This document shows positions 9,387-39,245 of a DNA stretch of 64,000 bases, piece by piece. The stretch comes from Psilocybe cubensis (lineage: Eukaryota): assembly GCA_017499595.2 (NCBI GenBank), contig CM039005.1, forward strand, positions 186,001 through 250,000, read 5' to 3'. Position numbers and translations under genes: made by a program. The notes below the pieces were generated by a model, which was not told the DNA's origin, did not search any database, and saw only the letters and a program-made list of their open reading frames with translations. How positions within the stretch are numbered: the first letter of the stretch is position 1; each line of letters starts with the position of its first letter.

Positions 9387-9695
9387 TACCCCCAATCTTT
9401 GGACATTGTATCTGCCATCTCTACAAACGTGTCTCTCACCTAGACCCTGGCTTGGCAAAGTCGAGGCTCCGACGGAGCGTGTATGACGTTTTTGTTTATC
9501 CGAAAACATTACATAAAATTGCATCAAATCAGAACAGCCACCGAACGCGTTGCTTGTGCCTCTTTCCTTTGCTTTGACACTCTTGAACTACGCACAAGTG
9601 CCTCACCAATATTCTCGCCTCTGCTTTGCATATTCCTGAACAACACAAAACAGACATCTGTGATAAAACTTTCGTCAGCAGAAGAAGAACAGTAT

Positions 9696-15276: not shown

Positions 15277-16338
15277 AACCGCCGTGCCATGATGCTGTTG
15301 TGTATTACCAGTAGTTTATTAATCAAGGGAACTTGCTTGATACCTATCCCAACATTACGAGTCTTTACGTAAGTAAAGATGAGTTCTTTTATCCCCACAA
15401 CCCAGCGAGCAAAAATGTCCTCGCCAATTGTCCCCATCAAAATATTATTGATGCGATCAATGTCGTTACCGCTATCGGTATTTTCCTTAAGCGGTCACCG
15501 GACCCCCTAAGCAACCCCTTTCCAATTCATTCTACGACTTCTTTTTACCATTGGTTACTTTAAAGGTTGTTTTTGATTTGTTTTGATCGCAATGTGAATG
15601 TGCGTTTCCATAAAATTAATTATACCCAACAACAATAGTCCTACTCAATTCACTTTTTTGCGTTGTTGTTTAATTTTTAAAACCATGTGGAACCGTCTAG
15701 CCAACGTGCTTATATATTGTACTAATACTTAGAGATGGAACAAATGCACTCTTTGAACTATGGGTCTGAAAGGTTGGAAATAGAACTGTGCAGGCACACA
15801 CGTTCCTTGATATTGGTAGCTTCATCAATCAGAGTTCAAATAGAAATAATTACGCGTTCTTGGGTTCTGGGCGTTCTGTACTATTTGAATTTGATTTTCT
15901 GATTCATGATTGTTTCTCACGCATACCAATTTGTTCTTCCCCTACGTCGGGCGTCTATTGGCTTACGGTTAATATATTTATTGACGTAGTATAGACAATG
16001 CACTTTTCTCCGCACTGTTTTACCCATGGCTTCCGCGTTATCCCCCCGTTTCCAACAGTATGTTCACTGTTTTATCTCATTTGGTTATTACTTATTTTTT
16101 AGAGTCTTTCCGCCTCCCATGGATGATGTGTACATGGATCAGATGGATCTGAAAACCCTCTACCATTTCTCTTGGACTTGCAAGGAGCTAAACAACCGCG
16201 TTTCGGGCTATATGCGCCGCACCTTCCATCCCAAAAATTTATTTGCTCCTATCTTCAAACCCAATGAACATTTGCTGTTTCGTCTTCTCCAGTTCAAGAC
16301 TGGCCTGGTTATTTCAGGTTCCACCATTTTGCATTTTA

Positions 16339-17902
16339 CTTGTTTTAGTGGTCCAACGCAAAGCGTGGCATGACAAGACTTTACATCTCACAATTGTATA
16401 AAATATTTTTTAATCTAGATTTATATAACATAGTTAATATATATTAATATGTTCTGAATGCACAGCCAGATACTGGGCAAGGTTATGATTAATTACTATG
16501 ACTTAGGTCTACTACAAGCTTAGTTGTGTCAGACACAAAAAATAGCTGCACAGGTTATAAGGCCTAATTTTAGGGAAGAACTTATCTATTATAATTTTCA
16601 TACCTGCTAAATATTGAAGAATTCCAGATCTGCTGGGAGAATCCCGTATGGAAAACTGATGGAAGAATGCTCATGTGTATGGCTGCCCAAGTGGGGACAT
16701 ATTTCCCATAAATATAATTTTCTTATTTTTGAAAAGTGCATCAAGAGTGAAACAATATTGTGTGCAAAAACATTTGTTTGGTACGCATATTTCTTTTTGA
16801 CATAGTTTGATGTTGCTGTGAACACAATTGGCTGTGTGGAAACATATTTCAAGCATAATTTGCAAGTGTTAGTACATTATTTCTTCCCCAAAATACATTC
16901 AATGCATGGAAAACATTATTCAAAATGACCATCTCTTGACCAAAGTGGCCAGTGCTCAATGCAACTTGAGTGTAGTGACCGTGGGAATATCCTGCGTACA
17001 GTGTGCGCAGGATATTCCCACGACCTGCTTATTAATTCACGGCCAGTACAAACACCACAGCAAGTAAAATATAATAAGATCATCTAAACTAGGACTGAAA
17101 ATAATTATTATTGCCAAAAATACTTGTATTTTACCTAAAGTATATGCAATGCATCTCAGTAATATATCAGGAATTACCAGAGAAGTTCAAGTTGCTCAAT
17201 GCAAAGTGCGGCAACCGTGAGAATAACTTGCATACACTATATGCAAGTTATTCCCACAGTCTGCTTATTAATTCATGGCCAGTATGAACAGCACAACAAG
17301 TTTAATATGACAAGTTATTTGAAGTGGCATTAAAGATAATAGCTAGATACATAATGTTTATTATTCTTTATTCTATGCCACCACAGTCTACTAGTCATTC
17401 ATGCTAAATTTTTTTTGATAATAATAAAGCATTCTATTTACCTCTACTTGCCGTTAGAGGTGTATAAAGCATGCAAAACAGTTGGTATGTAATTGATTGT
17501 GACTAATTAATGGCCTTAAATCAGTTGAATGAGGTCATTATTATAAAATTTTTGGTTATGAGCGATGATTATCTGCGTCAAAATGTTTAACTTGCAATTA
17601 AAAAGTCATAATGTAATGGTATCTAATTTTGTTTTCTACCATATGGCAGCTAACCTATCTACCTAGCTAATATCTAGTATTTTAATTTCCATATCCCCTT
17701 GGTAGGAACAAAAACTAACAGAAATTCTATGATAGTAACCAATTATTAAGTCAAGCATACCGGTTAAGTAAAAAACCGGTATTAATTACGCAATTTTGAT
17801 GGCATCAATGATTTACTGATGGGGACAATTGGCAAGGACATATTTTTGTACAGTGGGTTGTGGGGATAAAAGAACTCGCTTTACTTACATAAAGTTTCGT
17901 AA
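16339..17902 (-). mobile_element. Inner non-autonomous Helitron-like element, same family as the outer one, inverted
   Basis: Reverse complement of 17761-17902 matches 15355-15494; reverse complement of 16339-16385 matches 40273-40319. A|T insertion site; excision restores the host frame (CAT TTT A|TC AAT); contains the same GTGGGAATAT..ATATTCCCAC palindrome (16981-17021). Confidence 0.85.
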
Positions 17903-19249
17903 TCAATTGTGCTAATATATGGATTCCGGGTGACATGGACATGTATGTCAAGCACAGATAAACATCCTCTTCATCGACATTACAATACCACTGGAGTGGT
18001 CGTTAAGGCCCTGTTCAGTACGGATCAGTTTCGGTTGCAGTGCACATTTCAGTTGCACTTCAACGTGACTGATCTGTGACATATTAGTCAGCGTAGCCAC
18101 AATCGTCGATGTCGTCGATAGACAGTTTCAAAATCTAATCTAAGTGCTCTTTCTGCTTTGCTTCTACTCGCTTCTGGTGTAATTCTCTTCATGGCACTTC
18201 AGGCTCACTGGTCTGATGAAGACCTGGAGGTCTTGATTGCCTTTCTTGTCAGTAAAAAGGCAGCTGCTGGAGATGGTCTCTCTTTCAAAGATGCCATCTG
18301 GACTGAGGCAGCTCAAGAGGTCAACAACAAGAGTCCCCCACTGAGAGGAGCTCCAAAAACTGCTGGAAGCTGTAAAAGCAAGCTGCATAAGGTGATGTCT
18401 TTTGCTTTTTAGATGTCATGATTCTTTCTAAATCTTTTTTAGCTGAAGCAAATCTTTAACATTGTTTCAGACATAAAGGCTCAATCAGGATTTAAGTGGG
18501 ATGAGGAAAGAGGAGCAGATATAGATGATACTACTGCTGAGGTCTGGGCAGCATATGAGAAGGTGCGTAGCTTTTTTTCTTGACTTGATCTATATTTACA
18601 ACTATTTGTAGAGGCACAAAGGAGCATCCCCCTTTCGGAACAAAGGCTGGGTATGGTACAACAAGCTTGTGCCTATTATGCCCAATGCTCCAAGAGGTGC
18701 ACATGTTTTTCATGCCTCAACCCAGTCACAGCAGTTTGTAAATGAGAACGAGGGAGGGGAAATAAGTGATGATGAGCTTGAAAAACCTCTATCTGGTTGG
18801 GGGGTACGTCATTTTTTCTATTTTTATTGCTTTATCTCATTATAAACATTTTAGTCTCCCTCACCTCCTCCTTCTGCTTCGCTTATCACATCTCAAAATG
18901 TGGTAATTCCAGCCAAACGACGGGAATCTGCTCTTTCAAGCGACACAGAGTTTTCAGTTTCTTATTCGGCCAAACGTTCTCGCAGTCACGGTTCCGAGCG
19001 TCCATCTGGTGCCATGGCCTTACATGGTATGAACAGTCGTCTTGATGAATTTACAGATGTGTTCAGAGAGGCTTTTGTTGGAAAGAGGGGTGGTGTTGAA
19101 GCAACTCCTTCTAGAAAGACTCGGGCTATGAAGCGCGTACAGCAGCTTGAAACGCAACTGTCTAATAGCCGTAAAGCGCAAATCGGCCGTATACAATTAC
19201 TGTATATTGTGCCCTACATGCCTCTGTAGTGTGAACCCAACATGCCAGC

Positions 19250-20800
19250 CAAGTACGCACCTTACATGTGCGCCCATTTTGATGATTTATATTGAGCATG
19301 CCTGTGGGAACCATGCTCAGTCTGGTGCACTAGGAGTTCTCATGGCATACCGATGCATTACATACGGTTTGGTGCCTTAGGGCATTACATGGCGTTTAAC
19401 AGCATGTTTAAAGCTCAATGGATGCTAGAGCCATGTTCAAGCTAGTGATCTCTTGGACCAGCGGCAGCTCATGCCACGCTGTGGGATTTGCATATGCAGC
19501 AGTGCCTTGGGGCCTCCAATGGCAGCAAACGAGAGCTATGCTCAGTCTGAGGCGCTGAATTCTTGAATCGGCGGCTCATTGGCATTTTCTACATTTTCTG
19601 GTGCTTCAGGGCATCGAATACGAACAAATGTCATGAGTGAAGGCTTAGTGCATGCCTATAGGAGCTGTGCGTAGTCTGGTGCATCAGGACTCCTTGGAGG
19701 GGGCGGCTCATGCCATGCTGTGACATTTATGCACCCTTTGGTGCCTCACGGCGTCGAATGACAGCAAACGTGAGCCGTGCTCAGTCTGATGCGCTGAATT
19801 CTTGAATCGGCGGCTCATTGGCATTTTCTACATCTTCTGGTGCTTCAGGGCATCACATAGCAGCAAATCTCATGAGTGAAGGCTCAGTGCATGCCTATAG
19901 GAGCTGTGTGTAATCTGGTGCATCAGAACACCTGTGACATTTATGCACCCTTTGGTGCCTCACGGCGTCGAATGACAGCAAACGTGAGCCGTGCTCAGTC
20001 TGATGCGCTGAATTCTTGAATCGGCGGCTCATTGGCATTTTCTACATCTTCTGGTGCTTCAGGGCATCACATAGCAGCAAATCTCATGAGTGAAGGCTCA
20101 GTGCATGCCTATAGGAGCTGTGTGTAATCTGGTGCATCAGAACACCTGTGACATTTATGCACCCTTTGGTGCCTCACAGCGTCGAATGGCAGCAAATGGT
20201 ACTCGTAAGGCTTAGTGCTTACCTATAGAATCCATGCTTATTCGGGTTCACTAGGGGCCCCTCAACTCGCGTAGGCATATGCTGAGCTTCAGACATGCCA
20301 TTTGGTTCCATTCAATACTCTGACATACCGGAATGTTTGTAAATGCCATCCACAGGGTACTATGAGACATCCCTTCAAGGCGTAACACACATTCTGGTGC
20401 CTCATAGCATCAAATGGTAGCAAACGGCATGCACTGAGCTTTGCCTATAGGAGCCGTTCTTAGTCTGGTGCTGCAGGCCTCCTTAAAAAGAGCGGCTCAT
20501 GCTACGCCATATAATATATGCACACTCTAGTGCACCAGGGCATCGAATGGCAGAAAACATGTGCCGTGCTTATTCTGGTACACCAGAATTCTTGAAGCGG
20601 CGGCTCAGGCCACGTTGTGGCATTTACACATATTTTGGTGCCTCAGAGCATCGAATGTCTAGTCTGGTGCACCAGGACTCCTTGAAGGGATAGACTATTC
20701 TGTGCCGGTGGTATTTACTAACATTTTGGTGCCTTGTGGCGTTGAATGAAACAAAAGCACATGTCAGAAGCTCAGCACATGCCTATGGAACCGAGCTCAA
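19250..20800. repeat. Left subterminal tandem array; degenerate ~100-120-bp subunits with a near-perfect 214-bp period in the centre
   Basis: TGACATTTATGCACCCTTTGGTGCCTCAC recurs at 19721, 19935 and 20149; recurrent GGCGGCTCA and AGTCTGGTGC motifs. Confidence 0.88.
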
Positions 20801-20978
20801 GGCTTTTCTGATCAGGATCTGTATATCAGCAGAAGACAAGGCTCATGCTATAACTCCGAGTTAACACTTAGAATTTTGTCAATGCCTAATGTAAACTCGA
20901 TTTTGTACTCCTCCAACTGTGAGCCGTACAAAAATATAGAGCCGTACAAAAATATAATAGATTTTTCTATATTGACTA

Positions 20979-23900
20979 TCATAGTCTTCCTTCCATCTTC
21001 TGAATCTGTTGCCTGTTCCATATAGAGAAGAAAACTCGCATATACATCACCGCTCTTTCCTGTGTCATGTAGCTAACAGCTTTCCGAATTTTGGCAATCC
21101 CACTATTCCCACATTCTGCAGCGCTCGAGTTGAGTTTTAGCAACTCTGGATTGTCAGCACAGTATGTGGACAGAAAACATGCCTCTCCACATTTATGCTC
21201 GCTTGAGTGGAAGATGTCAATAGCAAATAAAGTATCCTTGAAAAATTCGGGTTCACGGGACATGCAGTAGGGCTGCAGTGCACATGCAAAATCATAAACA
21301 ACAACTTTTGGAGCCTTCCTCCATCGGGTATAAATTGCCGAAAATACGTCGTTTCGTCCTTCGGCTGCACGAATGCAATGAAAACCGTAGCATACACTGT
21401 GTGTGCACCAGACACACATGATACCACCGGTCAATCGCTTTTTGGAATATGTCGAATAGTATTTGTGGCAAATATCTTCATCAATGTCAGCTCCCCCAAG
21501 ATCCAGTCCATTTTCATACGGTAAATTTGGGTAATAAGAGCGATCGCGAATGGCTGGCATTGCATAGCAGCATCCAGTCTATAATTCTATTTTGTTAACG
21601 TATGATTGTCAAATTAAAATAAGCATACCTTTAACCACTCATCCTGTGGTATATATTTGTCCAAAGGCGGTGCTTGGGACATTTCATGGACCCTCAATAA
21701 ATCAAACACCACCTTGGATCGTAGATAAAGCCATTCACAGACACCGAGTACATCAGCACTCAACTTTCCAGTCTTAATTTCGTGCTTAACCACTTGGTAC
21801 AGACTGGGGATGAATCGTAATGCCGATGCTTTGGAATCAAGAGGATTCCTAATAAAATGCCTAAGATCCATTAGAGAACTGTGCGTGATCATTTGAAGTG
21901 CATTTTCGTCCGAAGAAATCTACACAGTCATTCAGGAATCAATTATTAGGACATAAATACAAGATTAAAAACGATACCTGAGTGAAAAACTTTGTGTAAA
22001 TATCCAAAGGGTCACACTTAAGAACAACCGCCAGTCCAAAATGTGTGTTAAACAGTCGTCCAAGACTAATGTTGATTTCTGACAACTTCTCAACAAGATC
22101 GGGAATTTTTGTTATCCTCTCCACGAGTTTTTTATTACGATCGTATTCCACAGTTCCTTCGGAGAAAATCTGGTTTGATAAAGTGCTGAGTTGAGGTCCC
22201 TTTATAACAAAGCGTAGTAGGAGTCGAAGGTTTCGATTTGGGATGAGCTGTATATTTTTTACTGGACGTACATTCGACCGCTGAATTGATCTTTTCCCTT
22301 GCATTGTTGGAGGAGTCAAAGATGGAAGCAGATTTCTCCGACTGTATGCAACAGTAACACCATCCCATATAGTTGCATCCGGGGTAGGTCCACAAATAGA
22401 GCAAATCATATCCTGGCCAAAGTCCATGAGACGAATGTATGAAAACCAAGCAGATCGAAACAGTTTTTCATTTGAAAATGGAACCGGTGACTGTCTTGTT
22501 TGATACCGGCGGGACATGGTGAGTGTCCAGGACACAAAAGGAGTCTCCGAGGATGAAAATGCACTAGTATAATCGTCCAACAGGTCATGCGTAAACAAAC
22601 TGCGATTGTTAAAATTGAAGATTCCAAGATTGCTGCAGTCGGGGCCAACATATCGATGAGAGCAGCTGATACATCTTTGGACGGTGATTAAGGATACAAA
22701 GGCTCCTGTCAGTGTATATACAACACACTTTTGCTGCTGAGTTGGTCCTAATGGGTTGAATACAATGCGTGGATTTGAACAGCAGCAGGAATCTCCCTCG
22801 TTTAAAGGGATATAATCCGGTGGTGAATTTACTACCACTCGGGGAGGACTTGGCGGATCAGACTTAATTTGGGCCCAGCACGGAGGTGGAAGACGCTTGT
22901 GGGACACAGACTCAGGAATTCCTGCCATCTGACGTATTGAATTATCTAAATGGCAATAAATCAGCACAGAAAGTCGGGAAAAAGCAACAAACACTACATA
23001 CCACCTAAAAATTGGACTTCATTTGAGTTTGACGTATTGTCAACACTTCCATCACGGGCATTCCAGTCTCCTCGTATGAGCTGTTGCAAAGAATGACGAG
23101 CAGCCACGATATGTGCACATGACACTGCCCCATTGTCTCTGTTGCATCTCCATGATCCTGATCCCGAGTCCTCACCCCGATGTTCAACTACTGCTCTGTT
23201 TTTCAGCGTAGGAAACCATGTAAATGATGGAGTTGAAAAGTAGTTGTTGTACTGTCCATCTACTATACTTTCATTTCTGAAAAATAGAAATGTCTGATTG
23301 TTATTAGAATCTAAATGTAGATGTTATATTGAGTCCTAATGAGAGATAAGAGGATTCGTACCATTGCCATCTGTAGGCAGAGGAAGCTTGAATCCGTTTG
23401 CAACAGTTTCTCTCAAAAAGCGTTCATGAAAACATTCAAATTGATTGTGATTTCTGGGGCAAATGCATGTTTCCTTCCATACACCGTTGAGCTCCATCCG
23501 TTGAATGTGGTACCAGAGTTTCTGGAAAGAAATTTGCAGTGATTATTAGACAATTAACATTATTACTGATCAGTTTCACGCACTGTAGACTCGCGCCTAG
23601 AATTACTCCATCCATTTGCAACAAAAAGATTGCCAGTAAGCTGGTAAAAGCCACATTCATCAGCCAGTACTGCATCCAGGAAGTACGAGTATTCTTCGTC
23701 ATCAGTTCCGGAGGCCCCTTCATTCACTGATTTGCCCAACGCATCTATTTCTGGAACAGATACTCCATAATCTTCATCATAAAAAGGCGCTAATGCATTG
23801 GTATCATCTTGGAGTACTGTTTGAGTTTCGGTTTCGAATTCTTCCGCATTTTTAGAGTATGCAATTGGTGTTGATCGTTGTTTCTTTGCCAGGCGAGATA

Positions 23901-24033
23901 CTTTTCCGCTGACTCTTTTCTTCCGAACAGGAGTTACAATTGGAGAGATACTTTCATGCGCATTGTAGGAATATTGTACTTCGGTAGGGGAATCTGGAAG
24001 GACTGCATAAACAATGGGAGGTGAGTCGCTCAT
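20979..24033 (-). CDS. KDZ-superfamily transposase (HMGXB3-like), multi-exon, with SWIM-like and Cys-cluster domains
   Basis: SWIM-like CICP..ECFH and WRC..SCAH; Cys cluster (CCC..QRCISC..YVGPD..GIFNFNN..FTH); CSICG..IWDG; CHKYY..LTGGIMCVWCTHSVCYGFH..AEGRNDVF; YDFAC; DIFH..HKC; NSSAAECGN. The exons I translated appear open. Confidence 0.88.
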
Positions 24034-24099
24034 GTTTCCCAGAGTACAATGTGAATAGTAAATGACAACTCTATTATTCGTGGTCTGTATTTCATGCCG

Positions 24100-25090
24100 T
24101 GTAGACTACAGTGCTATCTATCAGATGTCTCCTTCCCTGCACATTGTCTGCGTCAAGCCACATAGACTACAGTATTGCACAGGTCTGTGCCTCATGCCAT
24201 GTAGACCATGGTACAACCCATTAGATGGCTCCAGCCTTGAAGGTAGTCTTTGCTTCAGGCCGCGTAGACTAGGGAATTGTATATCCGATGCCTCCTGCCT
24301 TGCAGGTGGTCCATGCGTCACGCCGTATAAACCATGGTATTGTCCATCAGATGGCTCCAGTATTGAAGATAGTCTGTGTGTCACACCGTGTAAACCATGG
24401 GAGTGTCCATCCAATGCCTTCTGCCTTGCAGGTGGTCCGTGCGTCACGCCGTGTAAACCATGGTAATGCCCATCAGATGCCTCCAGCCTTGAAGATGGTC
24501 TGTGCGTCAGGCCACGTAGACTATGGTAATGTATATCCAATGCCTCCTGCCTTGCAGATGGTCTGTGTATCATGCCGTATAAACCATGGGAGTGTCCATC
24601 CGATGCCTTCTGCCTTGCAGGTGGTCCGTGCGTCACGCCATGTAAACCATGGTAATGCCCATCAGATGCCTCCAGCCTTGAAGATGGTCTGTGCGTCAGG
24701 CCACGTAGACTATGGTAATGTATATCCAATGCCTCCTGCCTTGCAGATGGTCTGTGTATCATGCCGTATAAACCATGGGAGTGTCCATCCGATGCCTTCT
24801 GCCTTGCAGGTGGTCCGTGCGTCACGCCGTGTAAACCATGGTAATGCCCATCAGATGCCTCCAGCCTTGAAGATGGTCTGTGCGTCAGGCCACGTAGACC
24901 ATGGTAATGTATATTCAATGCTTCCTGCCTTGCAGGTGGTCTGTGTGTCATGCCGTATAAACCATGGGAGTGTCCATCCGATGCCTTCTGCCTTGCAGGT
25001 GGTCCGTGCGTCACGCCGTGTAAACCATGATATGGCCCATCAGATGCCTCCAGCCTTGAAGATGGTCTGTGCATCGGGCCGCCTAGAATC
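24100..25090. repeat. Tandem array of 63-bp monomers arranged as a 189-bp higher-order repeat
   Basis: TGGTAATGCCCATCAGATGCC at 24461, 24650 and 24839; the ORF track shows 21-aa periodicity on both strands. Confidence 0.93.
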
Positions 25091-25319
25091 TGCTATCTTC
25101 TGGTGGCACAGTATTATGTGCACACATGCCGCCTTGCATCGGGTGTGCATAAGGTGCGCATTGGGTGGCCTCTGCCTTGCAAAATGTTTGTGTGTGCGTG
25201 ACAGCACCATACCACCTGTCTTAGGTCTGCGGTATGAAGGTATTTATTTCTCAGTATATAACCAACGTTCATCCTAACTACTATCTCTTTATACCTCTTG
25301 TTCTATTTCGCACAAATCC

Positions 25320-26754
25320 ATGGCCACCAAAAGTGTTCCGCGTTCACCAAAAAAGGTGTGTAATCTCTCTACAAGCCTGTTACTACCTCTAACACTCAAT
25401 GATTTATAGAAAATGTCTTCAACTTCTGGTAAGACTATGGCAACTCGTGTTAATACACGCTCGTCAAAGGTAAATTACAACAAATTCGTCAAATATGTAT
25501 GTTGAAATTAATAGCATATCCTTTATAGAAGTTAGCACAGAGTCCCAAACGTCAGCCTCAACGTTGCAAGCGATGCCCTGGAAATCCATTTCGCTCACAC
25601 TGTGTTCACACCAAGCACGGAAGGGAGTTTTTAGCCAACCAAGCAGCGGTTGAGGTTTGTCGTTACTATTTCATTCTTATAATATATCTTTGTTACTACG
25701 AAAGTATGCAGAGTCTTCGTACATCTACTCCTGCACCTGAGCGCAACTTGCCTTTGCCTACAGACCTTGGGAACGAATCACCAGTGGGTGCTACTCCATT
25801 TACATCACCGGCAATTACACCATCTCGCCCGTCTCAACTTCCCAACCCGTTCATTTCGAGTCAGTCTACTCATCAGCATGTTGGCACTCCAATGAGCAAT
25901 ATTTCAAGTGTGAGTGGCTACATTCTATCATCTAACACATTTTTGGTTGAACTAGTTTATTTATTAGCAAATTACTACTCCAAGAAGCAATGTACCCAGT
26001 GTCAGTGTACTGCATCACAGACAGTCTGCAGAAGCAGATGCCTCCTCCCCAAACTCCGGAGCTGGAGGAATACATGTTATGACATCCTCGCACCTGGCCA
26101 GCCTTTCTGTGCGCTCATCATCCCAAAGCTCGTCTGCAGGCTCTGCAAGTCGACCTAATCGGACTAGTGCCCAGAATCCATACAATGGATATGTTGATGG
26201 AGCATATCGAGGCTCGTCTGTTTATCGTGAGTTAACCTTTTTGTCTTCTACTCAATTTAAACTTCAATAATCGTGTCAGAAATTGTTCGAGGGCATCGTC
26301 TCCCCTCGCCAATCTCCGATAATACTCGTTCAGTCAAGAAATTTACTAACACAATTAATTCTATCATTGAAAAGGTATGGCTTTGTATTAAATGTTGTAC
26401 AATCTGATATCATGTGCTGCGCAGTGTGAAGACATCTCGAAAGAGACAGGTTGCTGGCTCTTTATTGGAGCACAGCATGCTACAGCACGCGCTGGGTCTA
26501 TTAGCTATGCTTCCCCTCGACTAAGGCGCGATGCAGCTGAGCAAGTAGGTCAAATCGGGACACAGTTTTCTACTCTCACCCGAAACTTGATTCATTCACG
26601 TACCCAAGAGACACTTGATCTCCAACGACAGCTGGAACAGTCTCGTCGTGAAACCGAGGAGGCAAAAAAGTCTTTGGAGGCTGTTCAAGAGAACCAAAAG
26701 GAGTTGCGTAGTATTCTAGACAGATTTCGTGAACAGTATCACATTGATGTGTAG
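25320..26754 (+). CDS. KDZ cargo gene: basic N-terminus, CxxC..C.H knuckle, Ser/Pro-rich linker, divergent MADS-box-like domain and coiled coil
   Basis: GT-AG exon chain from MATKSVPRSPKK; CKRCPGNPFRSHCVH; KKFTNTINSIIEK|CEDISKETGCWLFIGAQH..SYASPRL; C-terminal heptads. Confidence 0.72.
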
Positions 26755-28208: not shown

Positions 28209-29152
28209 ATGTCGTCTAAGAAGTCCCACTCTGCAACAGTACAGAGCGCTGACAAAAAGCTTGGATCATCTAGTAGCAAAGGTAACGATGTTACGGGATA
28301 TAGAAATTGATAATACTTACACAGACGTTACTCTACTCAGCTAGGAAAGACCCACGTGTAGGGCCAGATGGTAAAACCAAGCAGCAACGCTACGTTGAGA
28401 GGTATATTTCAATGTATTCAACAGTATTCTATTTTGTGACGTCTCTTTTCCAGGAATAGGGATGCTATAAATGCAAAAAATGCGTTACGAAATCGGCAAA
28501 AACGTGCAAAACAGTGAGCTGTTAATCACACTATATGGACTATGATCCTGACCCCCAGCGTAGAAAGCAGCTTGAAGAAGATGAATCAGAGCTAGAGGCC
28601 GTCGAGGCTTTGGTCAATCCCTCTACAGGTCAAGATATAGGCACAGACGACCAAGATCAGTTCTCCGACGGTGATACTGACTCGGACAGTGTCATTGCGC
28701 AAGGAGAAGACCCGTTTCCCCAAAAGGCTGAAGAGCCAAAGCGACCAACTACGTATGAAGAGGTAGTGCAGGAGTACATTCGATATCACGACCGCGAGCT
28801 CGACGCAGAGTTGGACCTTTTAGTTGTGTATGACGAATTCAAAAGGGCCAACGCCATGTACGATGACTGTCGGGAAAGGTATGGCACGTACTTTGATTCT
28901 TTATTGCCTCAATACTGGACCGTTGTCGACGGGTGGACACACAAGCATAAATATGCGGGGAGCAGCCTCCAGGTTGAGGGTGAACACTTGTTGAGGGAAA
29001 TTAGAGACACCGAGAAACTTTTTAACTCAGTATTGCTCAAGCTACCCCCTAAGGACGATGTATGGGCAGAAGCCTTCGACATGACTCGTCATTTAATGGG
29101 ATGGATGACATACCTTCATCATATCCATGAAGGACTTTCCGATGACATATAG
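28209..29152 (+). CDS. KDZ cargo gene: basic helix, acidic tract and helical domain, unknown function
   Basis: Exons MSSKKSH..SSK|ARKDP..QRYVE|RNRDAINAKNALRNRQKRAK|..RKQLEEDESELE, joining ORF 28535-29152. Confidence 0.7.
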
Positions 29153-29316
29153 ACGTATTCAATATGTCGTAGTTATTCACTTCGTGTAAATTTTGAAGAA
29201 ATGTATCTCTTTAATCGACTCTTATTTTGAACAATTCTGACTGTCACTTTGAAGTGTTTGACATGCTATGAACTTGTGAAAATAACTACCAGCTCAACTA
29301 GCTTACAACGGTGTGG

Positions 29317-30179
29317 TCAAATGTCTACCTCTGACTTTACAAATGGCTCCCCGTCAACAACACTGGTAGTGTTTAGAGTTAATGGTAATCGAATATCACG
29401 TCCACGATCCACCATAACAACTACACCTGCTTTCAATGCCAAGGTAAACGCCTCTACCGCCTCTGACCTCAACCGATAGGGAACAGCCCGAGCGCCCTTA
29501 ATGAACTTGATATTTTCCTGGATTCCAACACTGGTATAGGTATTAGAATAATTATGAGTTCCTGCAGTTGAGCACTTACGTCCCAACATCATCAAGGAGA
29601 TACACTCCGGGATTCCTACCCACTAAAACTGCCATCCAAGACGCCTCCTCTGGACCTGCTACATCACAATAATGAATGTCAGCAAATTATGAGTTTTATA
29701 GCCGAAACACATACTTGGATCACCATTGCGAAATCCATTCAAACCGCTAAGCTGAGAAAGCTTGAGGGTTTCGCGAGTTGGTGTCTTCACAAGGACAACC
29801 TGAGACGATTGCAGTGCTTCTCTGTACATGTCTTCGGCTTCGTCTTTAGACAGACAATAGCGAGCATATCCGCCAGAGACATTCTGGTAGGTCTTCAATG
29901 CTTTCTCACTACCATTGCATTTATTAGACATAATTCAATGGAGAGTTAGAAACTCTCACCGTCCTTGAATGGGCCCTGTATGTGTACCGACAAAGACACA
30001 ATACCATCGCTCCTTCGGGGGAGGAAGGCTGATATGACATTGGCATCCACAATTGGATAGTTTGCAAGTAATGACTATACATAAGAAGAAAATCACTCAT
30101 TATATAGCTATGCATATAGATATTGCAGAGGCTTACCGTCGCTGCTTGAGCCGTCGCTGCTTGAGGGATTCGCTTTCAT
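29317..30179 (-). CDS. KDZ cargo gene with two RNase H1 N-terminal (Cauli_VI/hybrid-binding)-like domains
   Basis: Spliced ERWYCVFVGTHTGPIQG..YQNVSGGYARYCLSKDEAEDMYREAL and WMAVLVGRNPGVY..IKFIKGARAVPYRLRSEAVEAFTLAL. Confidence 0.75.
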
Positions 30180-30429
30180 GAGGGAGTGGAGGTATGCCCT
30201 GATGACAGGACGACATTACAATCATTTTGTATAATTCTGAGCTTGGCTACAGAAGGCCGAAGAAACGCACACCATCAAGCTACCCGCATGGTAATGGCCA
30301 CTCCAAGCACGTTAGGCCTAATTGAATCGCGTAGACTAATATCTAGAATGTGGGAAAATGGACTTCGCTAATCTTATTAGTCACTGAAAGCACTGCTCAG
30401 GCATAAAAATTTCATATTTACCAGGGTAA

Positions 30430-30870
30430 ATTGAAACCCTCGTGCCCATGGATATCAGACATGTGCCTTCCAAGCATTATGGATGCGAAGAATATGAGAT
30501 TAAGGCATGTCCTGAGCGCTCCGATGTATCTTATGCATCTCAGTCCCTCAGCCGTGTCTTTTATCTTTCTAGTATGCCGTGGATCGCGGGCCTGTGTTTC
30601 CTGTGCTATGTCTTTGATCCATCTAGCACAAGAGTCCGAGATTAACACATGCTCTGAGCTCTCTCCCATATCCGCATGTCAGTCGCTCAGCCGTGTCTTT
30701 TATATATCCGAGAATATACCATCAATTATGTTTCTGTGTTTCCTGAGCCGCGTCTTTGATCCTTGATGCCCCCAGCACCGGGTGAATTTGTGCTTCCCTG
30801 AGCCATCGTATTGACCTCCAACCATATAGTGGATCCGTGTTTCCTAAGCCCCTAAGCCGTGTGTTTCATT
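30430..30870. repeat. Degenerate short tandem repeat array
   Basis: Recurrent (GTGTTTC)CTGAGCCG(T/C)GTCTTT(G/T)ATC-like units. Confidence 0.65.
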
Positions 30871-31081
30871 CCTACAGCTCATTCAGAAATCCGCCTCTTA
30901 GAAGACTCGACTCCATACACAATTCACAAGATCTATTCACTAGCTGTGACCTCGGACATATGACTGAGCCACACATATCTGGTATATCTCTCCTCATAAA
31001 AATAGAACTACAGCTTATTAAACAAAGCAGATCCCTTACAACCAGAGAATGAGAGTACCGGTACGACCAATAATTCAAAGA

Positions 31082-34000
31082 ATGAAGGTATGATTTCATT
31101 TTTTGCGAGTGGTGATATAATAACCCATGGTAGATACAGGACATCAAGAGAAGAAAAAAAGGGGACGAAGCAAGGCTTCAACCACTTTGGTTCCTCCGAT
31201 TCCTGAACATGAGGGACGCTATACCCTCCGTCGAGGTTATTTTACTATGTCATAGCCTGAAAGCTGAAACCTTGCTGACCTTCATATTTACCAGGGAAAC
31301 AATATAGCACTTCTGTTGAGAGAAGTAAAAATAGTGCTTCTCACCAGCGCGTGAAAAATATTATCTTGGAGACTATTCAAGACAGCACGGACATAGATAA
31401 CTCTAAGGGTGTACGTTTTTAACATCGTCTAAATCTCTCCATGTATTGACGCAGAGTACATAGACCGGTGGTTCTTCAAACACGGCCACCAATGGAGCCG
31501 ATAAAGCCGTTCTAGATAAGAGGCCAGATCCGTCAACATCTGTTCATGACGCCGAAGTTCAGCCAGAGCAGACGCAAAGTCCTAACATACCTGACCAAAC
31601 ACATAACATTAATCAAACACTGGTATGTTCCCGTCTTAATTCTATTATATTTATATATATATATAATCTTTGAAGCAGGAATCAAGTTCCGCTTCTGCGT
31701 CCCATACCAGGACTTTGAATTTGGATACCTTTGACAATAATACTGCCATAAATACGGTGTTGTATGACCCAGAATCAAACAATCACCCGACGGTGCCTGA
31801 GGTGAGCATGATTGATAAACCTCGCTACTGCTGAATCTATCTAAATTGTAAATGTAGCCATCCAATCACGTCTTTGGCTTTAAAGAGGGGTCTACTTCTC
31901 ATGTAGACTCTCAGAATGGCGTGTCAATAGATGAAGCCTATTCCCTTTTCCATGCGCCAAAGGAATCTCACAACCTGCAGCCGGTATTGTTCACTATATA
32001 TTTCTGTGAGGATCCAGACCTTAAAATGAATCTTAGAATGGAAATGCCGCTCTGTTTTCGCCACTTGAGAGCCAGAATATGACTTTTACACAGTTGCTGC
32101 AGGACGCTATTATGGTGAGCATGTTGTATAACATTGAAAATGATCATCTTAAGAACGTTATGTTAAATACTGCAGCCTGATACGCCAATCAATCACACAT
32201 ATACCATGGACGTTAACATGTCCCACCAGCTGGTAAGCTTTTGTCTATTCGCTAAGGAGGTAGAGATTAAACCATTTTGCTTGTAGATCTCCAATAGCCA
32301 GTTTGATATGTTATATCCAGAAAACTTCTCTACGAGCAATGGTGCCCAGCAATTCTCTGAATCTCATATTACCCAGGACAATACTCAGGATCTGCCTACA
32401 CGTGGCAGTACCTACGGTTCTCTGGACTTCAAATTTGATGCACAGACAAATGGCACGCTCGACACTCAGAACCCGGTAAGCTTTTAATTGGTAAAGATAT
32501 CTCTGCTGACTAATCTACAATACTCTAGAATATGACGGATATCAATTCGTTAATTCTGAATGCTCCCGAGGACAGTACGGAATCCAATAATATCAAAGGT
32601 CGTCAAGTTTCCGCAAGCAGTCTCAATGAAACCACTCCTATCCTCACCATTCCTCCCCACATTTTGTCTCTCATTTCTCCAAAGCTTCAGGAGGAATTTG
32701 ATATGTCTGTTGCAAATCGTCAGAAGGTATTTTTGGAGTACTCGGAGCGTGAACGCATGATTTGCGCACCTGCTCAGCGAACATTACCGGAGATTCGACA
32801 TGCACTAGAAAATATTGACCGTTGCATTGACTCCATCCAACGTCACAATCTCCGTATTGCAGAAATTCAGGAGGAGGTAGCAAAGGCTCAGCGCAAATTT
32901 CAGGATGCCGAAAACATCAAATCGTTGGAGGAAAAGTTGGCTTTGCTGCGGGACGAAGAAAAACGTGCACAGTCAAATCTTGAAAACGGGACAGTAGAGA
33001 CGTTTTTGGACCTAAAGCAGGCTTTGATGAGTATTCGGTCGCAGATTCGGGATGTCGGCCTTCTTCTGGATGTAGCATCGGCCTCGTTGAAGAACTCCAA
33101 GTCACAGAGCCCTTCGGCTTTGTCAGCTGGTCAATCAAGTGTAGTGCAGCCACCAGCTCCAAAGCCCAATCGCTCAAAATCGACTCAGCCAGTTAATGAG
33201 AAGCCCAGTGAAAAGCGCGCAGCACCTTCAAAGCCTCCTCCTCGCAAAAAGGCAAAAACAGGACGTCCTAAACTGATCGAGGAAGAGTCCGACTCCGACG
33301 AGACAATCGAAGATATAGGCGTCGAGACTATGGATATTATCCAGGAAAGGACCTGGGCGTCCATGAACCTGCACGATCGTGGTAAATTTGAAGGTATGTG
33401 TGTCTGTGTGTGTTTTTAAATGTCTAATCTCTCTAATTTTCAATTCTATAGCCGGTGCAAGACAGGCCATGCATCTCTACGAATCCACTGGGGATATATC
33501 TCATTTTCATATCCGCTATCGGCTTGCTCTTCGCCACATCCAATCTTTCTTACCAGAAGAATGCTTTCATTCCAAAAAAGTGGCTATTGCAATCTTCCGG
33601 ACAGCTTCCCTGAACTTAGTGTGTCGCTTTCACAAACGCTTTTCAAAGAACAAAATCCACGATGGCGTCGGAGTCATGAGAATCCAGGGAGTCCCATACC
33701 AACCCAGCTACAATTCAAGAGAAGGAAAAGCACAAGAACCGCAAGAGGGATATATGCATTGTGGGTGTCTGGTTGACGACGTCTTACTGGATTTCTTTTT
33801 TTGGAAGACTTTAACAATCACATCGCCACTTGAGAGGCTAAAGGGGATTTCGGAGCCAATGATGCAAAGCGTTTTTAGGCCCCGTATGCGCGCCTTTCTT
33901 ATCCAACTTTTCAAGCTATACACATGTTTGACAGCTGACGACATCTACTGTTCTACTAGAGAGCAAGGACAGCCCGCATCATACCGAGAAAATGAACTCA

Positions 34001-34119
34001 TGAAGCTCAGTATTGTTCGTTTATTAGCTAATTGGAATATGCGTACTGGGCGGCGTGTTTTCTTCCTAGATCCAGATGATCAAAATTCTCAGGAAAACAC
34101 TTCGACTACAGAGCATTAG
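31082..34119 (+). CDS. KDZ cargo gene: many small 5' exons, coiled coil, basic/acidic linker, C-terminal domain with CRFH and HCGC motifs
   Basis: ORFs 32532-33419 and 33379-34119 are linked by a GT-AG intron (~33394-33450). Upstream exons are inferred from splice signals, so the start is uncertain. Confidence 0.65.
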
Positions 34120-34178
34120 ACTACTAGGTAGCTTAGATAGAATAGCATATATTCTAATAAACCACTAAGCCAGCTATT

Positions 34179-34731
34179 TCATCTAATATACAGGTTTGAA
34201 TCCGGATGGAAGCTGTAAATATTCATCAATACTCTGTACCCCTTGATCATATAGCCATAATGCCTTGTGTGCATGCTAAGTTTATTAAGTTTATCATCAG
34301 AATAGAGAAATAAGCATCTTCTTACGACGAGTTTTGCCCTTAGCCTTTCTGCAAGGGTTTCCATTGCCTTTACCCGCTTTAATGGTAGTTTATACCAAGC
34401 TATGCGAGTAAATATTGTTTGAAATCGAGGCTATGATATACGATATGAATCGAATATTAAGTATAATGCAGAGAATGTAACGTACAAATGATCTCAGATA
34501 GAAACAGTGTGTGGATCTAAGACACGCGAGGGATAGATTGTATGTGTCGTTGTTTACTGCATGCCTCTTCTTAATATACTTTTTTAAAGAGTCTTGTGCT
34601 TCAGCGAGTTCTTGAACCGCATCTCGAAGATAAAGAAGACTTTTTATAAGTCGTTCCTTGTTTTTGCGTTTGCGTTTTCCAGAGTTTATTGGTCTGAGAG
34701 ACACTGCGGCTTTTCGACGAAATAATGGCAT
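34179..34731 (-). CDS. KDZ cargo gene: small basic two-exon protein, unknown function
   Basis: MPLFRRK..KRKRKNKERL..FYLRSF|PRFQTIFTRIAWYKLPLKRVKAMETLAERL; one GT-AG intron joins two ORF-track ORFs in frame. Confidence 0.6.
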
Positions 34732-34954
34732 GAGAAAACACGGGAGAATGGATGATATAAGAAAAGCCAAAGGTCCGGGGAATGCCTGGAGAAATCTAAC
34801 CAACGATGTAAAGGCCCCCTACTTAGTAGAGAGCAGTATAGCTTGGCAAGCGTACCCGCCCCATTTCCTCAAGATTGGATACTGGTGCGCTCAGACCTCG
34901 CATTTGCAGCCTTATGTATGGCATGCCCTTTGCCGCCAGTCAGAGGGGTGCTGA

Positions 34955-35730
34955 ACCAATGCCCTGAGCCGCCAGTAGTGAAAGGAGGGGTGCACCCTAG
35001 CCTCTAGAGTTGAGAAATGAGCGCTGGTGAGCCATAAGACATGCCGGTTCAAGGTGGTGCTGTGGGGCTTAGCTTTGTAGGAATACTGGAACTGATGCCC
35101 TGAGCCGCCAGTAGTGAAAGGAGGGGTGCGTTGAGGCACGACCATGAGGAAGTAAAAAAATTGATGCCCCTAGCCTCTAGAGTTGAGAAATGAGCGCTAG
35201 TGAGCCATAAGACATGCCGGTTCAAGGTGGTGCTGTGGGGCTTAGCTTTGTAGGAATACTGGAACTGATGCCCTGAGCCGCCAGTAGTGAAAGGAGGGGT
35301 GCGTTGAGGCACGACCATGAGGAAGTAAAAAAATTGATGCCCCTAGCCTCTAGAGTTGAGAAATGAGCGCTAGTGAGCCATGTGGCATGCTGGTTCAAGG
35401 TGGTGCTGTGGGGCTTAGCTTTGTAGAAATACTGGAACTGATGCCCTGAGCCGTCAGTGCTGAAAGGAGGGATGCGTTGAGGCGCAACCATGGGGAAGTA
35501 AAAAAAACTGATGCCCCTAGCCTCTAGAGTTGAGAGGTGAGCACTAGTGAGCCATGAGGCATGCCGGTTCAAGGTGGTGCTGTGGGGCTTAGCTTTGTAG
35601 GAATACTGGAACTGATGCCCTGAGCCGACAGTGCTGCAAGGAGGGGTGCGTTGAGGCGCAACCATGGGTAAGTAATTAGACTGATGCCCAAAACCTCCCA
35701 TGCTGAGAATGCTGAGCCGCCAGTGTTCAT
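34955..35730. repeat. Right subterminal tandem array, 173-174-bp unit, about 4.5 copies
   Basis: ACTGATGCCCTGAGCCG at 35091, 35264, 35437 and 35611. Confidence 0.93.
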
Positions 35731-36561
35731 AGCAGGGGTGCCATGAGACATACCCATGTTCTTGAGGCACATAAAGGTGCAAACTCCCATAAAGAAACCT
35801 GAGGCACTTACATGATAATAAAACATATCTTGGCAAGCGTCCCCGCACCCTATCATCATATACAAAAATGTAATGGCAGGCCCGGTGATGATGGACAGCA
35901 GGGTGCCGTGAGCCACATTGTTGTGGAAATAACCAAACCAAAGGCCTGTGCCGCCGTCTTTAGTGTCTTGAGCATGCCGCACCACTTGTACACCACAAAC
36001 AGTCAACATTCAACCTCAGAAGCGTTGTAATTATGCTTGGCAAATCTCAAGGCACCAGGATGTTTGTGCATGGCATTCGACGCTCAGAGACACTCTTGTC
36101 AAACATAGTTTTATAAGTGTCAATAGAGGTACTCATTACACTGTGCCATCCCGTATTTCTTACTTCACACAAGTTTAAGACTTGTAGATATAGCTTGCTC
36201 ATACTAAAACATGTATTTTCGTAATTTTGGGTCATTCTGCGGGACAGACATCCGCAGTGACTGAAATAATCTAATGAGGGATCACTTCCGAGTAGCGACT
36301 CTATATATTGGATCAATGCGGGGTACTTACTTCGCCTTGATGTCAGGTTTGAGTTTAGCATATATGTCAGGTGCGTTATGACTGCATTATAACCCAGCCG
36401 GTAACCCCCGTAAAGTGGCTTTGATTGATTTGTTTCAAGCTGATGTTAGTATGGCAGATACATATCTCTCATTGACAGACAATGGTGTTCGAGAGGCATG
36501 GGTTAAAAGGCACACAAAAGATGTGGAGGAAGAAGAATAGTTAATTTATAGTACTTGATTA

Positions 36562-37888
36562 TTATTCTAATCCAAATCCACTTGTCAACACTTGATAGCT
36601 TCTCCACATAGCCTCTGCTATTTTATCCCTTTTTGAAGTTGCGCGTAAAACTTCTGCTCGACGAGGAGGTCCATTTCCAAGAACACCATAATTGTTATGC
36701 TGAACATCTGCAAAATCGACAAAGTCTAAAATTTCTTCAGGATCGTGGTCGCGAATAAAATTGTGTGTAGCAGCAAGAGCGGGAGGAATACGAGCTTGAA
36801 TATCCATACTGAACTCGGGTGGATGGACCAAAATTGTGAATCGCCTTTTGAGAACACCAAAAATACGTTCAATAACGTTTCTTGCGGATGCATGTCGGAG
36901 ATTGTATAACTCTTCTTTTGTTGCTGGTCTACAAAATATAATTTAGAATGTAAGCAGAAAAATTATATAAAATTACTCACCGAACTGAAGCCCGTCCCCA
37001 CTCTGCTAAATGATAACGAACACCCCGATATGGAACCAAAAGTGAATCACATATTCCAAAACCTGCATCCGCCAAATAATATTTTCCATCTGGAATAGTG
37101 AGATCAGAAAGACGCGCATCGTTATACATGCTAGCATCTGCAGCACACCCGTCCCAACCACTAAGCATATATTGAAATCGCAAATCAAAGCCACAACAAG
37201 CAAGTGTGTTTTGAGATACACCACCTTTGCGATTTCGTGAAAATTGACGTTCTTCTGCAGAAGGACAGCAGTTTATATGTGTCCCATCCATAGCTCCAAT
37301 AGCACCTTCAAAAAATGGAAAAAACTTTGGATTTGATCTAATTTCTGGTGGAATTGGATCAGATGCGGCCGGAAGTTTGACGTAAGTTGTATAAAAAGGG
37401 CTTGAAGATAGTGCATATAAGATCATGCGAAATGACCTGGATATAATGATTACAAAAGACATATTTATAATAAAATCTTATGCTTACCTTGATATAGTTC
37501 CATTTGCGTGCTGAAATCGCTCTCCAACATGTCGGATTGAAAGACCAGTAACACAAGTATAGAGAAAAATAGCCAGATGCTCTTCAAGGGTGATGTGTCG
37601 TGAGTCTTTTAATCCAGTAGAACGTAAAGCCTTGACAAGAGCCTTGAAAACATGTGGTTTCATCCCTAGTTCATTCTTCATTCGGTTAGGATGGCCTTGA
37701 AGAAGTTCTTGTACCCATGCATGTCCAGTAAGGATAGATGTATGGTAAGGAGTCTTGACATAGAATGGTGTACTGAACAGTTTAGCTGCAGAAGCCACGG
37801 TGTTTACAAAAAACAAGGCTGCAGCAGATGCCAGGCGAAGCCGGCCAGACTCAGTGTCAGAATCGTCGGAATGGTTAGGAAGTGACAT
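36562..37888 (-). CDS. PIF/Harbinger DDE transposase (3 exons)
   Basis: EEHLAIFLY..ERFQH..TISR; GAMDGTH; SGWDG..AD; YYLADAG; YNLRHA..RNVIERIFGVLKRRF; HNFI. Confidence 0.95.
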
Positions 37889-38919
37889 TGATCAGATTAT
37901 GTAATGTCACATGTGCAACTGAAATGTGCACTGCAACCGAAACTGATCCGTACTGAACAGGGCGTAACCTATGGTGCCAAGGTTCTTTTGTCCAACTGAT
38001 TACAACTTGTCAATCGGTGGTAGAGTGCATTTTGGGGTATTATAGCAGTATGTCCCCAATGTCATGTGTCAAAACAATGTTAACTTCAATTTTGTTCTAC
38101 TGCAGCCGGCGTCATGAATTTTGTTACCTTTGAGAAGGTGTACAGCTTGTATCCAAATGCTACCTTTGGACATCAAGTCTCTCTGTTGCAACCTTCTGCC
38201 AACCTCAAGCGCGCGCAAAAATTTCTTGCAAAATATCATTCCTGTGGCTTGAAATTTGTTCTTTCCATTCCATCGCAAACTTTGAAAATGGACCGCCATA
38301 TCCAAAGCAGGATACAGTCTATCAGGGACAACGTAAATGTTGGGTATAGTTCATCTCGTGGTCATGTTCTTGTTGTGCTGGATTACGATCCTTATCCAGA
38401 GTTGTTCTCTCCTGGGATTAGACGGGTTGGCGACAGGCATTGTTGGGTTTATTCTTTGCCTCTTTTACCCAAAGCAAATCAGACTTCCTTTGTTGAAGCC
38501 AATTCGTGGGCATTGTTGCTCAATGAATTTGATTGTTTGCATTTTGGTGTCCGTCGCATCAGCGGTATCGCATTAGATTTTCACTACACAGCGGCAGATG
38601 TTTACCAATTACACAAGCGTGTCAAAAAAGCTATCAAATCCTGGGAAAGGGGTATAAGGTGTGTGCTCTTTAGTTTTAGTATTTGTCAATTTAATTCCTG
38701 TAATGTAGGCAAAAAGATGACCGTGTACATGCAACTGTTTTGTATTTGCTATCCAGAAAGGCAGATATTTTTTGGTTGCATTGCCCTCAACCACAAAGCC
38801 TCTTGTGGAATGGATATTTGTAATTTCTTCCATCCTTAGTCAAATTTTTGTTCGAAATAAACTTGTGTTCTCATCGTCATTCTTTTTGTCTTAATTTGTA
38901 AGTTTGACTTGCGGATGAG

Positions 38920-39100
38920 CGTGGGAATATCCTGAGTACAGTGTACGCAGAATATTCCCACGGTCAACCTCTCCCGATATTCAGCCGAGTGTGGGAATAT
39001 TCTGCGTACAGTGTACGCAGAATTCTCCCACGGACTTCCTCGCCGATATTCAGCCGAGTGTGGGAATATTCTGCGTACAGTGTACGCAGGATTCTCCCAT
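38920..39100. repeat. Three tandem ~41-bp palindromes (period ~70 bp) between the convergent Helitron genes
   Basis: GTGGGAATATTCTGCGTACAGTGTACGCAGAATATTCCCAC-like units separated by near-identical ..CCGATATTCAGCCGA linkers. Confidence 0.9.
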
Positions 39101-39245
39101 GGGGTGCCAACTAACACTTTCAGATAATTTCTGTCATGAAAATGACTTGACAAATTATTCCTTGTTATTTACAATGTTCACGCAAATGGATTGATTGTTC
39201 GTTCAGCACATTTATGATATCCTTGTCTTTCTATGTACATATGTA

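Follow-up and report, generated by a model that had tools for sequence, protein, structure and literature searches.

A broken gene for a predicted F-box/class II-like nucleotidyltransferase inside a Helitron2 element of Psilocybe cubensis

We analyzed a 64,000-nucleotide stretch of the Psilocybe cubensis genome (46.6 Mb; G000:C8:186001-250000), hereafter called the window. Unprefixed coordinates are window positions, and coordinates with a C handle refer to this genome. A non-autonomous Helitron2 (HLE2) element in the window carries two converging genes, A and B. Gene A is, on balance, probably a broken copy of a captured fungal F-box/class II-like nucleotidyltransferase gene, an accessory cargo that would act in trans. 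The window's copy itself is ordinary transposon debris. Fusions of cullin adaptors with class II-like nucleotidyltransferases are known; the one described here is borne by HLE2, and its family is mostly chromosomal.

Gene A has four exons from the ATG at 16026 to the stop at 38823, and both ends agree with the public protein P0001 (Table 1). Its ISGS (16311-16322) and DMDMYV (17932-17949) segments are separated by an inner HLE2 insertion. Neither the raw window nor any of 30 codon-shuffled windows contained the combined motif, which emerged once the inner insertion was removed, as the initial annotation had claimed. Excision of the inner element regained the residues H-F-I-N-C, identical to those of the uninterrupted copies at G000:C3:3669444, C6:720271, and C6:583388. 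Of 29 closely related copies of the N-terminal exon, 3 lacked the inner insertion and 26 carried it. Two of the three uninterrupted copies read ISGS-x15-DMDMYV directly, which confirmed the motif without reconstruction, and the third has ISDS and N-x-D. The spacer of gene A is 15 residues and not 16 as first reported; the family mode is 14 (227 of 250 proteins). The window copy is dead, in agreement with the initial annotation, and three lesions were mapped in it: the inner Helitron2, a frameshifting 119-nt deletion at 17960/17961 common to 5 of the 19 sister copies checked, and a PIF/Harbinger element. Because 26 of the 29 close copies carry the inner insertion, the recent amplification burst followed the death of gene A, and gene A is therefore dispensable in cis. 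Between the window and the uninterrupted C3 copy there were 90 differences, of which 49 were CpG-to-TpG changes in the window and 3 were in the reverse direction; this excess would fit a methylated dead copy.

Next, we examined the protein family. A phmmer search of 1.84 billion representatives returned 1,022 matches at E<=0.001 (representatives at 50% identity), and the named relatives among the best 120 of a second search were Agaricomycete proteins annotated as hypothetical or "F-box domain", a single genome often having several. Across 131 aligned proteins, G83 was invariant, D100 was present in 124, and D102 was present in 129. Among 250 proteins, G[SG] was found in 244, D-x-D in 238, Gln173 in 232, His189 in 238, and KYxxR in 219, and the D-x-D to which the initial annotation had pointed was thus conserved among homologs. 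The position of the third carboxylate, located from the secondary structure and by comparison with a Pandoravirus protein, held Gln in 232 of the 250 and Asp or Glu in 6. The spacer between hG[GS] and Dh[DE]h in the Pol-beta superfamily is quoted as 9-13 residues (10.1101/2023.12.02.569716; here and below, papers are cited from their accessible parts), and the 14-15 residues of this family are slightly longer. The family does not have RRD and EDxxR, its consensus showing FHS instead, and none of the 131 members matched PF01743. Two members, P0005 (748 aa) and P0162 (736 aa), are tandem double-length proteins, and several family paralogs were located on one contig in many genomes.

The AlphaFold model of P0001 showed a pLDDT of 80 and a pTM of 0.81. 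P0001 is without about 28 conserved residues after position 297 and appears to be modelled from a damaged copy; only residues 1-245 were relied on. The top 10 Foldseek rows were class II CCA-adding/poly(A) enzymes (E 2e-4 to 2e-3), and the model matched class II enzymes with Z 9.0-10.2 over 167-174 residues, compared with Z <6 for FAM46B, LnuA, and Pol-beta. The gene A product is thus predicted to have the head and neck fold of class II CCA-adding enzymes and poly(A) polymerases. The Pol-beta superfamily fold that had been proposed from the motif was borne out by the model, in which the minimal fold was found with hG[GS] followed by Dh[DE]h; the third carboxylate was not found. Solved class II enzymes (PDB 4wby, 3h37, 3wfo, 3aql, and 1miv) share the head and neck fold and the order of G-S/G and D-x-D (Z 7.9-10.2), but identity to them is 8-12%, the family spacer is longer, and of the solved chains only about the first 240 residues align. 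The alignments stop near chain residue 240, before the helical tRNA-binding body and tail of the class II enzymes, and the C-terminal part of the model is less confident. Because the third carboxylate is replaced by Gln and neither RRD nor EDxxR is present, the gene A product is not a CCA-adding enzyme; this membership was ruled out by the missing motifs together with the missing PF01743 matches. The host has its own CCA-adding gene. A Pfam scan of the gene A pieces of the window gave no match, and the sole sign of a nucleotidyltransferase in the Pfam scan of the family was NTP_transf_5 in 2 of 131 members, below the cut-off. The PHROGs search gave no match, and the PDB sequence search gave none below E 0.02.

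The N-terminus was examined in the same way. PF00646 and PF12937 were each matched by 16 of the 131 members (E<=0.01). The N-terminus of P0001 scored 42 bits on the family N-terminal profile, compared with at most 2.7 bits for 20 shuffles, and its model placed helices at residues 17-22, 27-34, and 38-51. Atlas F-box clusters were retrieved at 0.96, with 10-11% labelled. These data suggest a degenerate, F-box-like block, and the F-box assignment is a call at the level of the family. Accordingly, the F-box-like N-terminus of the initial annotation stood as part of this block, but P0001 itself had no Pfam F-box match.

The ends of the outer element were defined by sister elements, which were 98-99% identical and whose flanks parted exactly at 15355 and 40319. 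The left end showed 29 matches at 96% or more and the right end 28 matches at 94% or more (40 scored each). A 13-bp repeat lies two bases inside the left end and, inverted, 33 bases inside the right end, where it is followed by a weak hairpin. In the inner family, matching changes were observed in both arms of the terminal repeat (covariation). In the flanks of the outer element, the base before the left end was A in 13, G in 10, and T in 4, and the base after the right end was T in all 12 distinct flanks. No target-site duplication was found at the outer or the inner element of the window or in paired sister flanks. The left-flank base, mostly A or G, did not match the usual T-T insertion of HLE2; insertion between T and T is described as a preference and not as an absolute rule (PMC5148889, PMC11417382). 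A canonical Helitron (HLE1; 5'-TC, 3'-CTRR, no inverted repeats) was ruled out, the ends being TT and CAAG with an inverted repeat. The asymmetric terminal inverted repeat with a subterminal hairpin is the design of Helitron2/HLE2 (PMC5148889, PMC11417382), and a RepHel with DUF6570, a marker of HLE2 (PMC11417382), was found between the same ends. The carrier had been annotated as a Helitron, and its ends and this RepHel specify it as HLE2.

The RepHel is carried by a master element of 26.4 kb (G000:C3:3668727-3695134) with the same ends as the outer element. Its open 2781-aa frame contains DUF6570, Helitron_like_N, and PIF1 and reads away from the hairpin end, as in the "reverse" type. The master cargo includes the sole apparently intact gene A (G000:C3:3669351-3670739; 1 of 29 close copies; the C6 copies have a stop or motif changes), gene B, and P0002, a second paralog that is 45% identical and reads N-x-D. 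The 5-kb family to which the window element belongs and two 8-9-kb C6 copies are deletion derivatives of the master. The deletion junction of the window element is at 40219/40220, and that of the C6 copies interrupts an open frame of the master and bears no element ends. The master is bordered by identical 45-bp direct repeats (G000:C3:3668682-3668726 and 3695135-3695179), which would not be expected of a Helitron. Palindromes of about 42 bp, present between genes A and B, mark this HLE2 group and were also found in the inner element (16976-17022) and on both sides of the master RepHel (G000:C3:3683007-3683168, 3691763), but not in 75 metagenome loci; they are possibly binding or termination sites of RepHel. 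The master also carries a spliced cargo gene (L077:1968-3523; G000:C3:3680967-3682525) without a Pfam match, which we take to resemble a JmjC/cupin domain, and further cargo frames at C3:3676230, 3678042, and 3679488. In another RepHel family, with a 2808-aa protein, a homolog of gene B lies upstream and an Spt5-NGN-like frame (L085:1409-2818; E 2.7e-4) follows the RepHel; a relative of this frame was found in a decayed C8 element (L095:7996-9028).

The HLE2 elements described by HELIANO (PMC11417382) and FoHeli of Fusarium (PMC5148889) resemble the present elements in the asymmetric repeat, the hairpin at one end, the DUF6570 RepHel reading away from it, self-insertion, and cargo, whereas here the end sequences differ, the target is (A/G/T)-T, and the master reaches 26 kb with many genes. 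FoHeli-like self-insertion was observed as copies of the 5-kb element lying in or beside each other in opposite orientation (G000:C1:4181388-4191566, C14:211452-215131). Helitron cargo of unknown function has been described as the cap genes of Pleurotus HELPO1 (PMC4289320).

Table 1. Features of the outer Helitron2 element, its cargo genes, and the elements nested in it (window positions)
Feature	Position	Strand	Remark
Outer non-autonomous Helitron2 (HLE2)	15355..40319	+	~5 kb minus nested insertions; ends ambiguous by one T
Left arm, 13-bp asymmetric terminal inverted repeat	15357..15369	+	exact reverse complement of 40274-40286
Gene A, exon 1 (ATG)	16026..16057	+	agrees with P0001 N-terminus
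Gene A, GT-AG intron	16058-16102	+	after exon 1
Gene A, exon 2, 5' part: F-box-like helices and ISGS motif	16103..16338	+	
Inner non-coding HLE2 of a sister family, inserted in gene A	16339..17902	-	
Gene A, exon 2, middle part: DMDMYV, then 119-nt deletion at 17960/17961	17903..18006	+	
PIF/Harbinger element, 51-bp terminal inverted repeats, TAA target duplication, enlarged by nested elements	18007..37964	.	
KDZ-type transposase gene (CxC4) nested in PIF element	20982..23018	-	PF18717, E 1.5e-46
Gene A, exon 2, 3' part: VQL strand, YHS	37965..38047	+	then intron 38048-38105
Gene A, exon 3: VMN, SLYP, KYxxRG motifs and C-terminal subdomain	38106..38658	+	
Gene A, last exon and stop (stop 38821-38823)	38709..38823	+	94.7% to P0001 residues 347-384
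Three ~42-bp palindromes between converging genes A and B	38918..39102	.	-15.6 kcal/mol
Gene B, predicted T7 gp2.5/Enc34-type single-stranded-DNA-binding OB (oligonucleotide/oligosaccharide-binding) fold and C-terminal helix	39249..40220	-	
Right arm of inverted repeat, short hairpin, CAAG end	40274..40319	+	hairpin -5.7 kcal/mol

The identity of gene B as a single-stranded-DNA-binding protein (SSB) is a lead drawn from a predicted structure. Its model was of low confidence (pLDDT 59.7, from 23 partly fragmentary alignment rows), the three best matches that were not coiled coils (4klk, 5odk, and 1je5) showed middling Z of 7.0-7.8, and its viral fold matches include named SSBs.

We next investigated the genomic linkage of the family. 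In this genome, six of eight gene A lineages were located within about 20 kb of RepHel sequence, compared with about 1.9% expected by chance; for the lineages C6:3349 and C2:549/C12:1776, no RepHel was found in the stretches fetched. The C6:3349 paralog and the metagenome locus L130 both adjoin a HEATR5/Laa1 gene. Among the 75 metagenome loci, many of them short and several from one organism, RepHel was found in 4, gene B in 11, and either in 13; of the 20 that reach 9 kb or more, 5 had either. Pfam confirmed three of the four RepHel loci, two with DUF6570. The six longest frames were scanned in 18 of the 75 loci, and the RepHel-less ones showed ordinary neighbors, for example REV1, MCM, Hsp70, and transporters. 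The consistent Helitron linkage that had been expected was therefore seen for most lineages in this genome but in only a minority of the metagenome loci, and the proposal that gene A is always Helitron cargo was rejected, many members being chromosomal. P0175 is a chromosomal paralog. A DUF6570 RepHel element at G000:C4:329767-347341, with a copy at C9:2736082-2753657, carries family members or fragments, five in all, on either strand; four of them lack the F-box and have degenerate motifs. In other genomes, members of an F-box-less clade lie directly downstream of an SSB-like gene on the same strand (L167, L173-L176, L180-L182, and L185).

A tree was built from 41 of 83 rows; 42 unlabelled rows from short loci were omitted, rows with <60% core coverage had been dropped earlier, and "host" denotes that no element gene was seen. 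Labels changed 4 times on this tree, compared with a mean of 13.9 for shuffled labels, a clustering that near-copies inflate. The five element-borne F-box rows formed a clade (support 100/99) nested in a clade (96/91) with seven host-context rows, and all 13 rows of a separate F-box-less clade were element-associated. Because the gene A lineage is nested among host genes, its simplest reading is that an ancestral HLE2 captured it from the agaric chromosomal family; on the same tree, the F-box-less form would most simply be an older element resident. Omega was 0.26 against the C4 paralog, a rough value as synonymous sites were near saturation, and the proportions of synonymous and nonsynonymous differences (pS and pN) against P0002 were 0.82 and 0.35. 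These values suggest that divergence among element-borne paralogs was constrained by purifying selection.

Structural relatives were also found among viruses and phages. The best viral fold matches were proteins of Klosneuvirus, Harvfovirus, Orpheovirus, and Cedratvirus, several of them named F-box proteins. Three of these giant-virus proteins (BFVD A0A1V0SK13, A0A2I2L471, and A0A2R8FG48) combine an F-box adaptor with the same fold, but are 11-14% identical to the family and are likewise predictions. Gad2 (PF26128) was matched in precomputed data by P0164 and P0165 only (2 of the 120 listed homologs), and a direct Pfam scan of both returned none, perhaps because the Pfam version used does not include this model. 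An Atlas cluster at 0.88 contained 29% Gad2 members and is a lead only. We know of no Gabija system in fungi. Gad2 is a phage anti-Gabija protein (10.1101/2023.05.01.538930) that is, like the gene A product, about 400 aa long, predicted to be a nucleotidyltransferase, and borne by a mobile element, whereas the gene A family is eukaryotic and F-box-fused. In the BTB-nucleotidyltransferase of Pandoravirus cluster 7 (A0A2U7UAG2), Gln replaces the third carboxylate, RRD is altered, EDxxR is absent, and two basic residues lie downstream (10.1101/2023.12.02.569716). This protein shares with the family a cullin adaptor joined to a class II-like nucleotidyltransferase and the same motif departures; in contrast, the family is fungal and spliced, with an F-box and not BTB, FHS and not DFD, and a Helitron2 carrier. 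According to the same paper, class II enzymes need only two Asp, and the third carboxylate is dispensable. No relatives were retrieved from 50,697 phage records or, by peptide patterns, from viral contigs; at 12% identity such searches are too strict and exclude nothing.

In the reading that we favor, two Asp and the Gln would bind metal, and an RNA 3' end or a protein side chain would receive nucleotides in a template-free reaction of relaxed base specificity. The F-box would dock the enzyme on Skp1/Cul1, thereby tying modification to turnover of the target or of the enzyme itself. Autonomous elements would keep gene A under purifying selection as trans-acting accessory cargo, probably against host defence, as the viral and phage relatives (Gad2 and the giant-virus fusions) suggest; non-autonomous derivatives manage without gene A, which is broken in most copies. 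Several observations weigh against this reading. The inner insertion is present in most close copies, P0001 lacks a Pfam F-box match, and each F-box model matches only a small part of the family. When the family profile was compared by hhalign with the CCA-adding gene of the host, represented by three single exons, no significant match was obtained, and the motif correspondence beyond D-x-D is therefore by eye. In P0002, D-x-D is replaced by N-x-D and KYxxR is missing its Arg, and stops interrupt the C5 and C8 copies; thus, some element-borne copies have not retained catalysis. Finally, the tree was rooted only at its midpoint and its branches are long, and near-saturated synonymous sites underlie the omega value.

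The low number of apparently intact copies, the burst after inactivation, the CpG-to-TpG changes that account for 49 of the 90 differences between window and master, and the nesting of the lineage among host genes would also be expected if a host F-box nucleotidyltransferase had been captured by end-bypass as a neutral hitch-hiker without benefit, its constraint being a trace of its past in the host. We consider this doubtful, as five element-borne paralogs diverged within elements (35-59% identity, from exon searches), two of them keeping G-S, D-x-D, and open frames; moreover, the omega value, the association with elements at three or more separate points of the tree, and the F-box-less clade beside an SSB-like gene in other genomes argue against it. 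Proximity to gene B and RepHel in the metagenome loci (11 and 4 of 75), giant-virus and phage structural relatives for both cargo genes, and the element association of all F-box-less rows agree with a replication helper, in which the nucleotidyltransferase would work with RepHel and the SSB-like protein on a single-stranded or circular intermediate or would tail element transcripts. This appears improbable, however, because no gene A was found in the stretches fetched for two RepHel families of this genome (1958 and 2808 aa, with identical intact copies), the nucleotidyltransferase family is for the most part chromosomal, and an F-box is no replication module. Quite improbable, in our view, is a non-catalytic receptor, in which the fold would bind a nucleotide, an RNA end, or a nucleotidylated protein for the F-box protein. 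The absence of the third carboxylate, RRD, and EDxxR, the N-x-D of the second master copy, and the position of the fold behind the F-box, where substrate-binding domains of F-box proteins usually sit, agree with it, but 238 of 250 proteins retain the two Asp that bind metal, and D-x-D persists in F-box-less members. The two-Asp requirement of class II enzymes (10.1101/2023.12.02.569716) also speaks for catalysis. A broader and unlikely scenario is that fungal Helitron2 elements carry a virus-like kit of SSB and Gad2-like nucleotidyltransferase that was repeatedly swapped with the host, in which case the large host F-box family would be a eukaryotic conflict system that joins an SCF adaptor to a nucleotide-tagging enzyme, and the element versions, including those with N-x-D, would be counter-defence enzymes or decoys directed at this system.

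In the literature, we found no paper that calls the fungal family a nucleotidyltransferase or reports it as cargo of a Helitron; subscription papers or supplements may hold such a description. A 2016 review by Burroughs and Aravind on RNA repair in biological conflicts may already mention the family. The word nucleotidyltransferase occurs 0 times in the main texts of the HELIANO (PMC11417382) and Pleurotus (PMC4289320) papers, the accessible part of PMC2794190 contains neither "fungi" nor "F-box", and that of PMC7824862 covers phage RNA-end enzymes only. The predicted fold and active site give a testable proposal for a large "hypothetical" mushroom protein family, the 1,022 representatives noted above, and tie it to the giant-virus cullin-adaptor fusions and Gad2; the cited papers name a substrate for none of these. 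One fungal host provides two chromosomal paralogs together with an element-borne copy that appears intact, which makes the question workable. Fungal Helitron2 elements also appear to keep whole cargo genes under selection and not fragments.

Other elements are nested inside gene A. The inner HLE2 of 1,564 bp has the same end structure as the outer element, with ends that are 79% and 87% like the outer ends. It showed 20 full-length matches at 99-100% and free-standing relatives at 80-83%, and it was amplified together with the outer element. The locus G000:C7:3335822-3343760 was considered as the autonomous partner and was ruled out, as it consists of the inner family and nested pieces. The PIF/Harbinger element was recognized by its terminal inverted repeats (arms at 18008-18058 and 37913-37963; three end pairs in the genome), the TAA/TTA duplication, and a DDE_Tnp_4 transposase on the minus strand (36565-37477). 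A spliced gene at 18200-19226 (+) within it gave no domain match (last exon only scanned); its start is presumably Myb/SANT-like, the expected second gene of PIF/Harbinger. The insertion also contains nested elements between 19.3 and 36 kb and repeat arrays at 19458-20748 (214-bp units), 24119-25174 (63-bp units, open in two frames), and 34953-35741 (173-bp units).

The window as a whole is a transposon nest around a small array of related, spliced membrane-protein genes (5529-6662, 14500-15280, 43942-44851, 47154-48256, and 49410-49991) without a Pfam match in the one exon scanned. The outer Helitron is located between two genes of this array. Other elements include an intact reading frame of a long interspersed nuclear element (2-4885), an element bounded by 32-bp perfect inverted repeats (7710-9388), and, at 51087-57521, a copia element (long terminal repeats 51781-52072 and 56751-57042) nested within an element with 144-bp inverted repeats. 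The interior of the latter element at 51325-51406 is 83% like the Helitron at 15633-15714.

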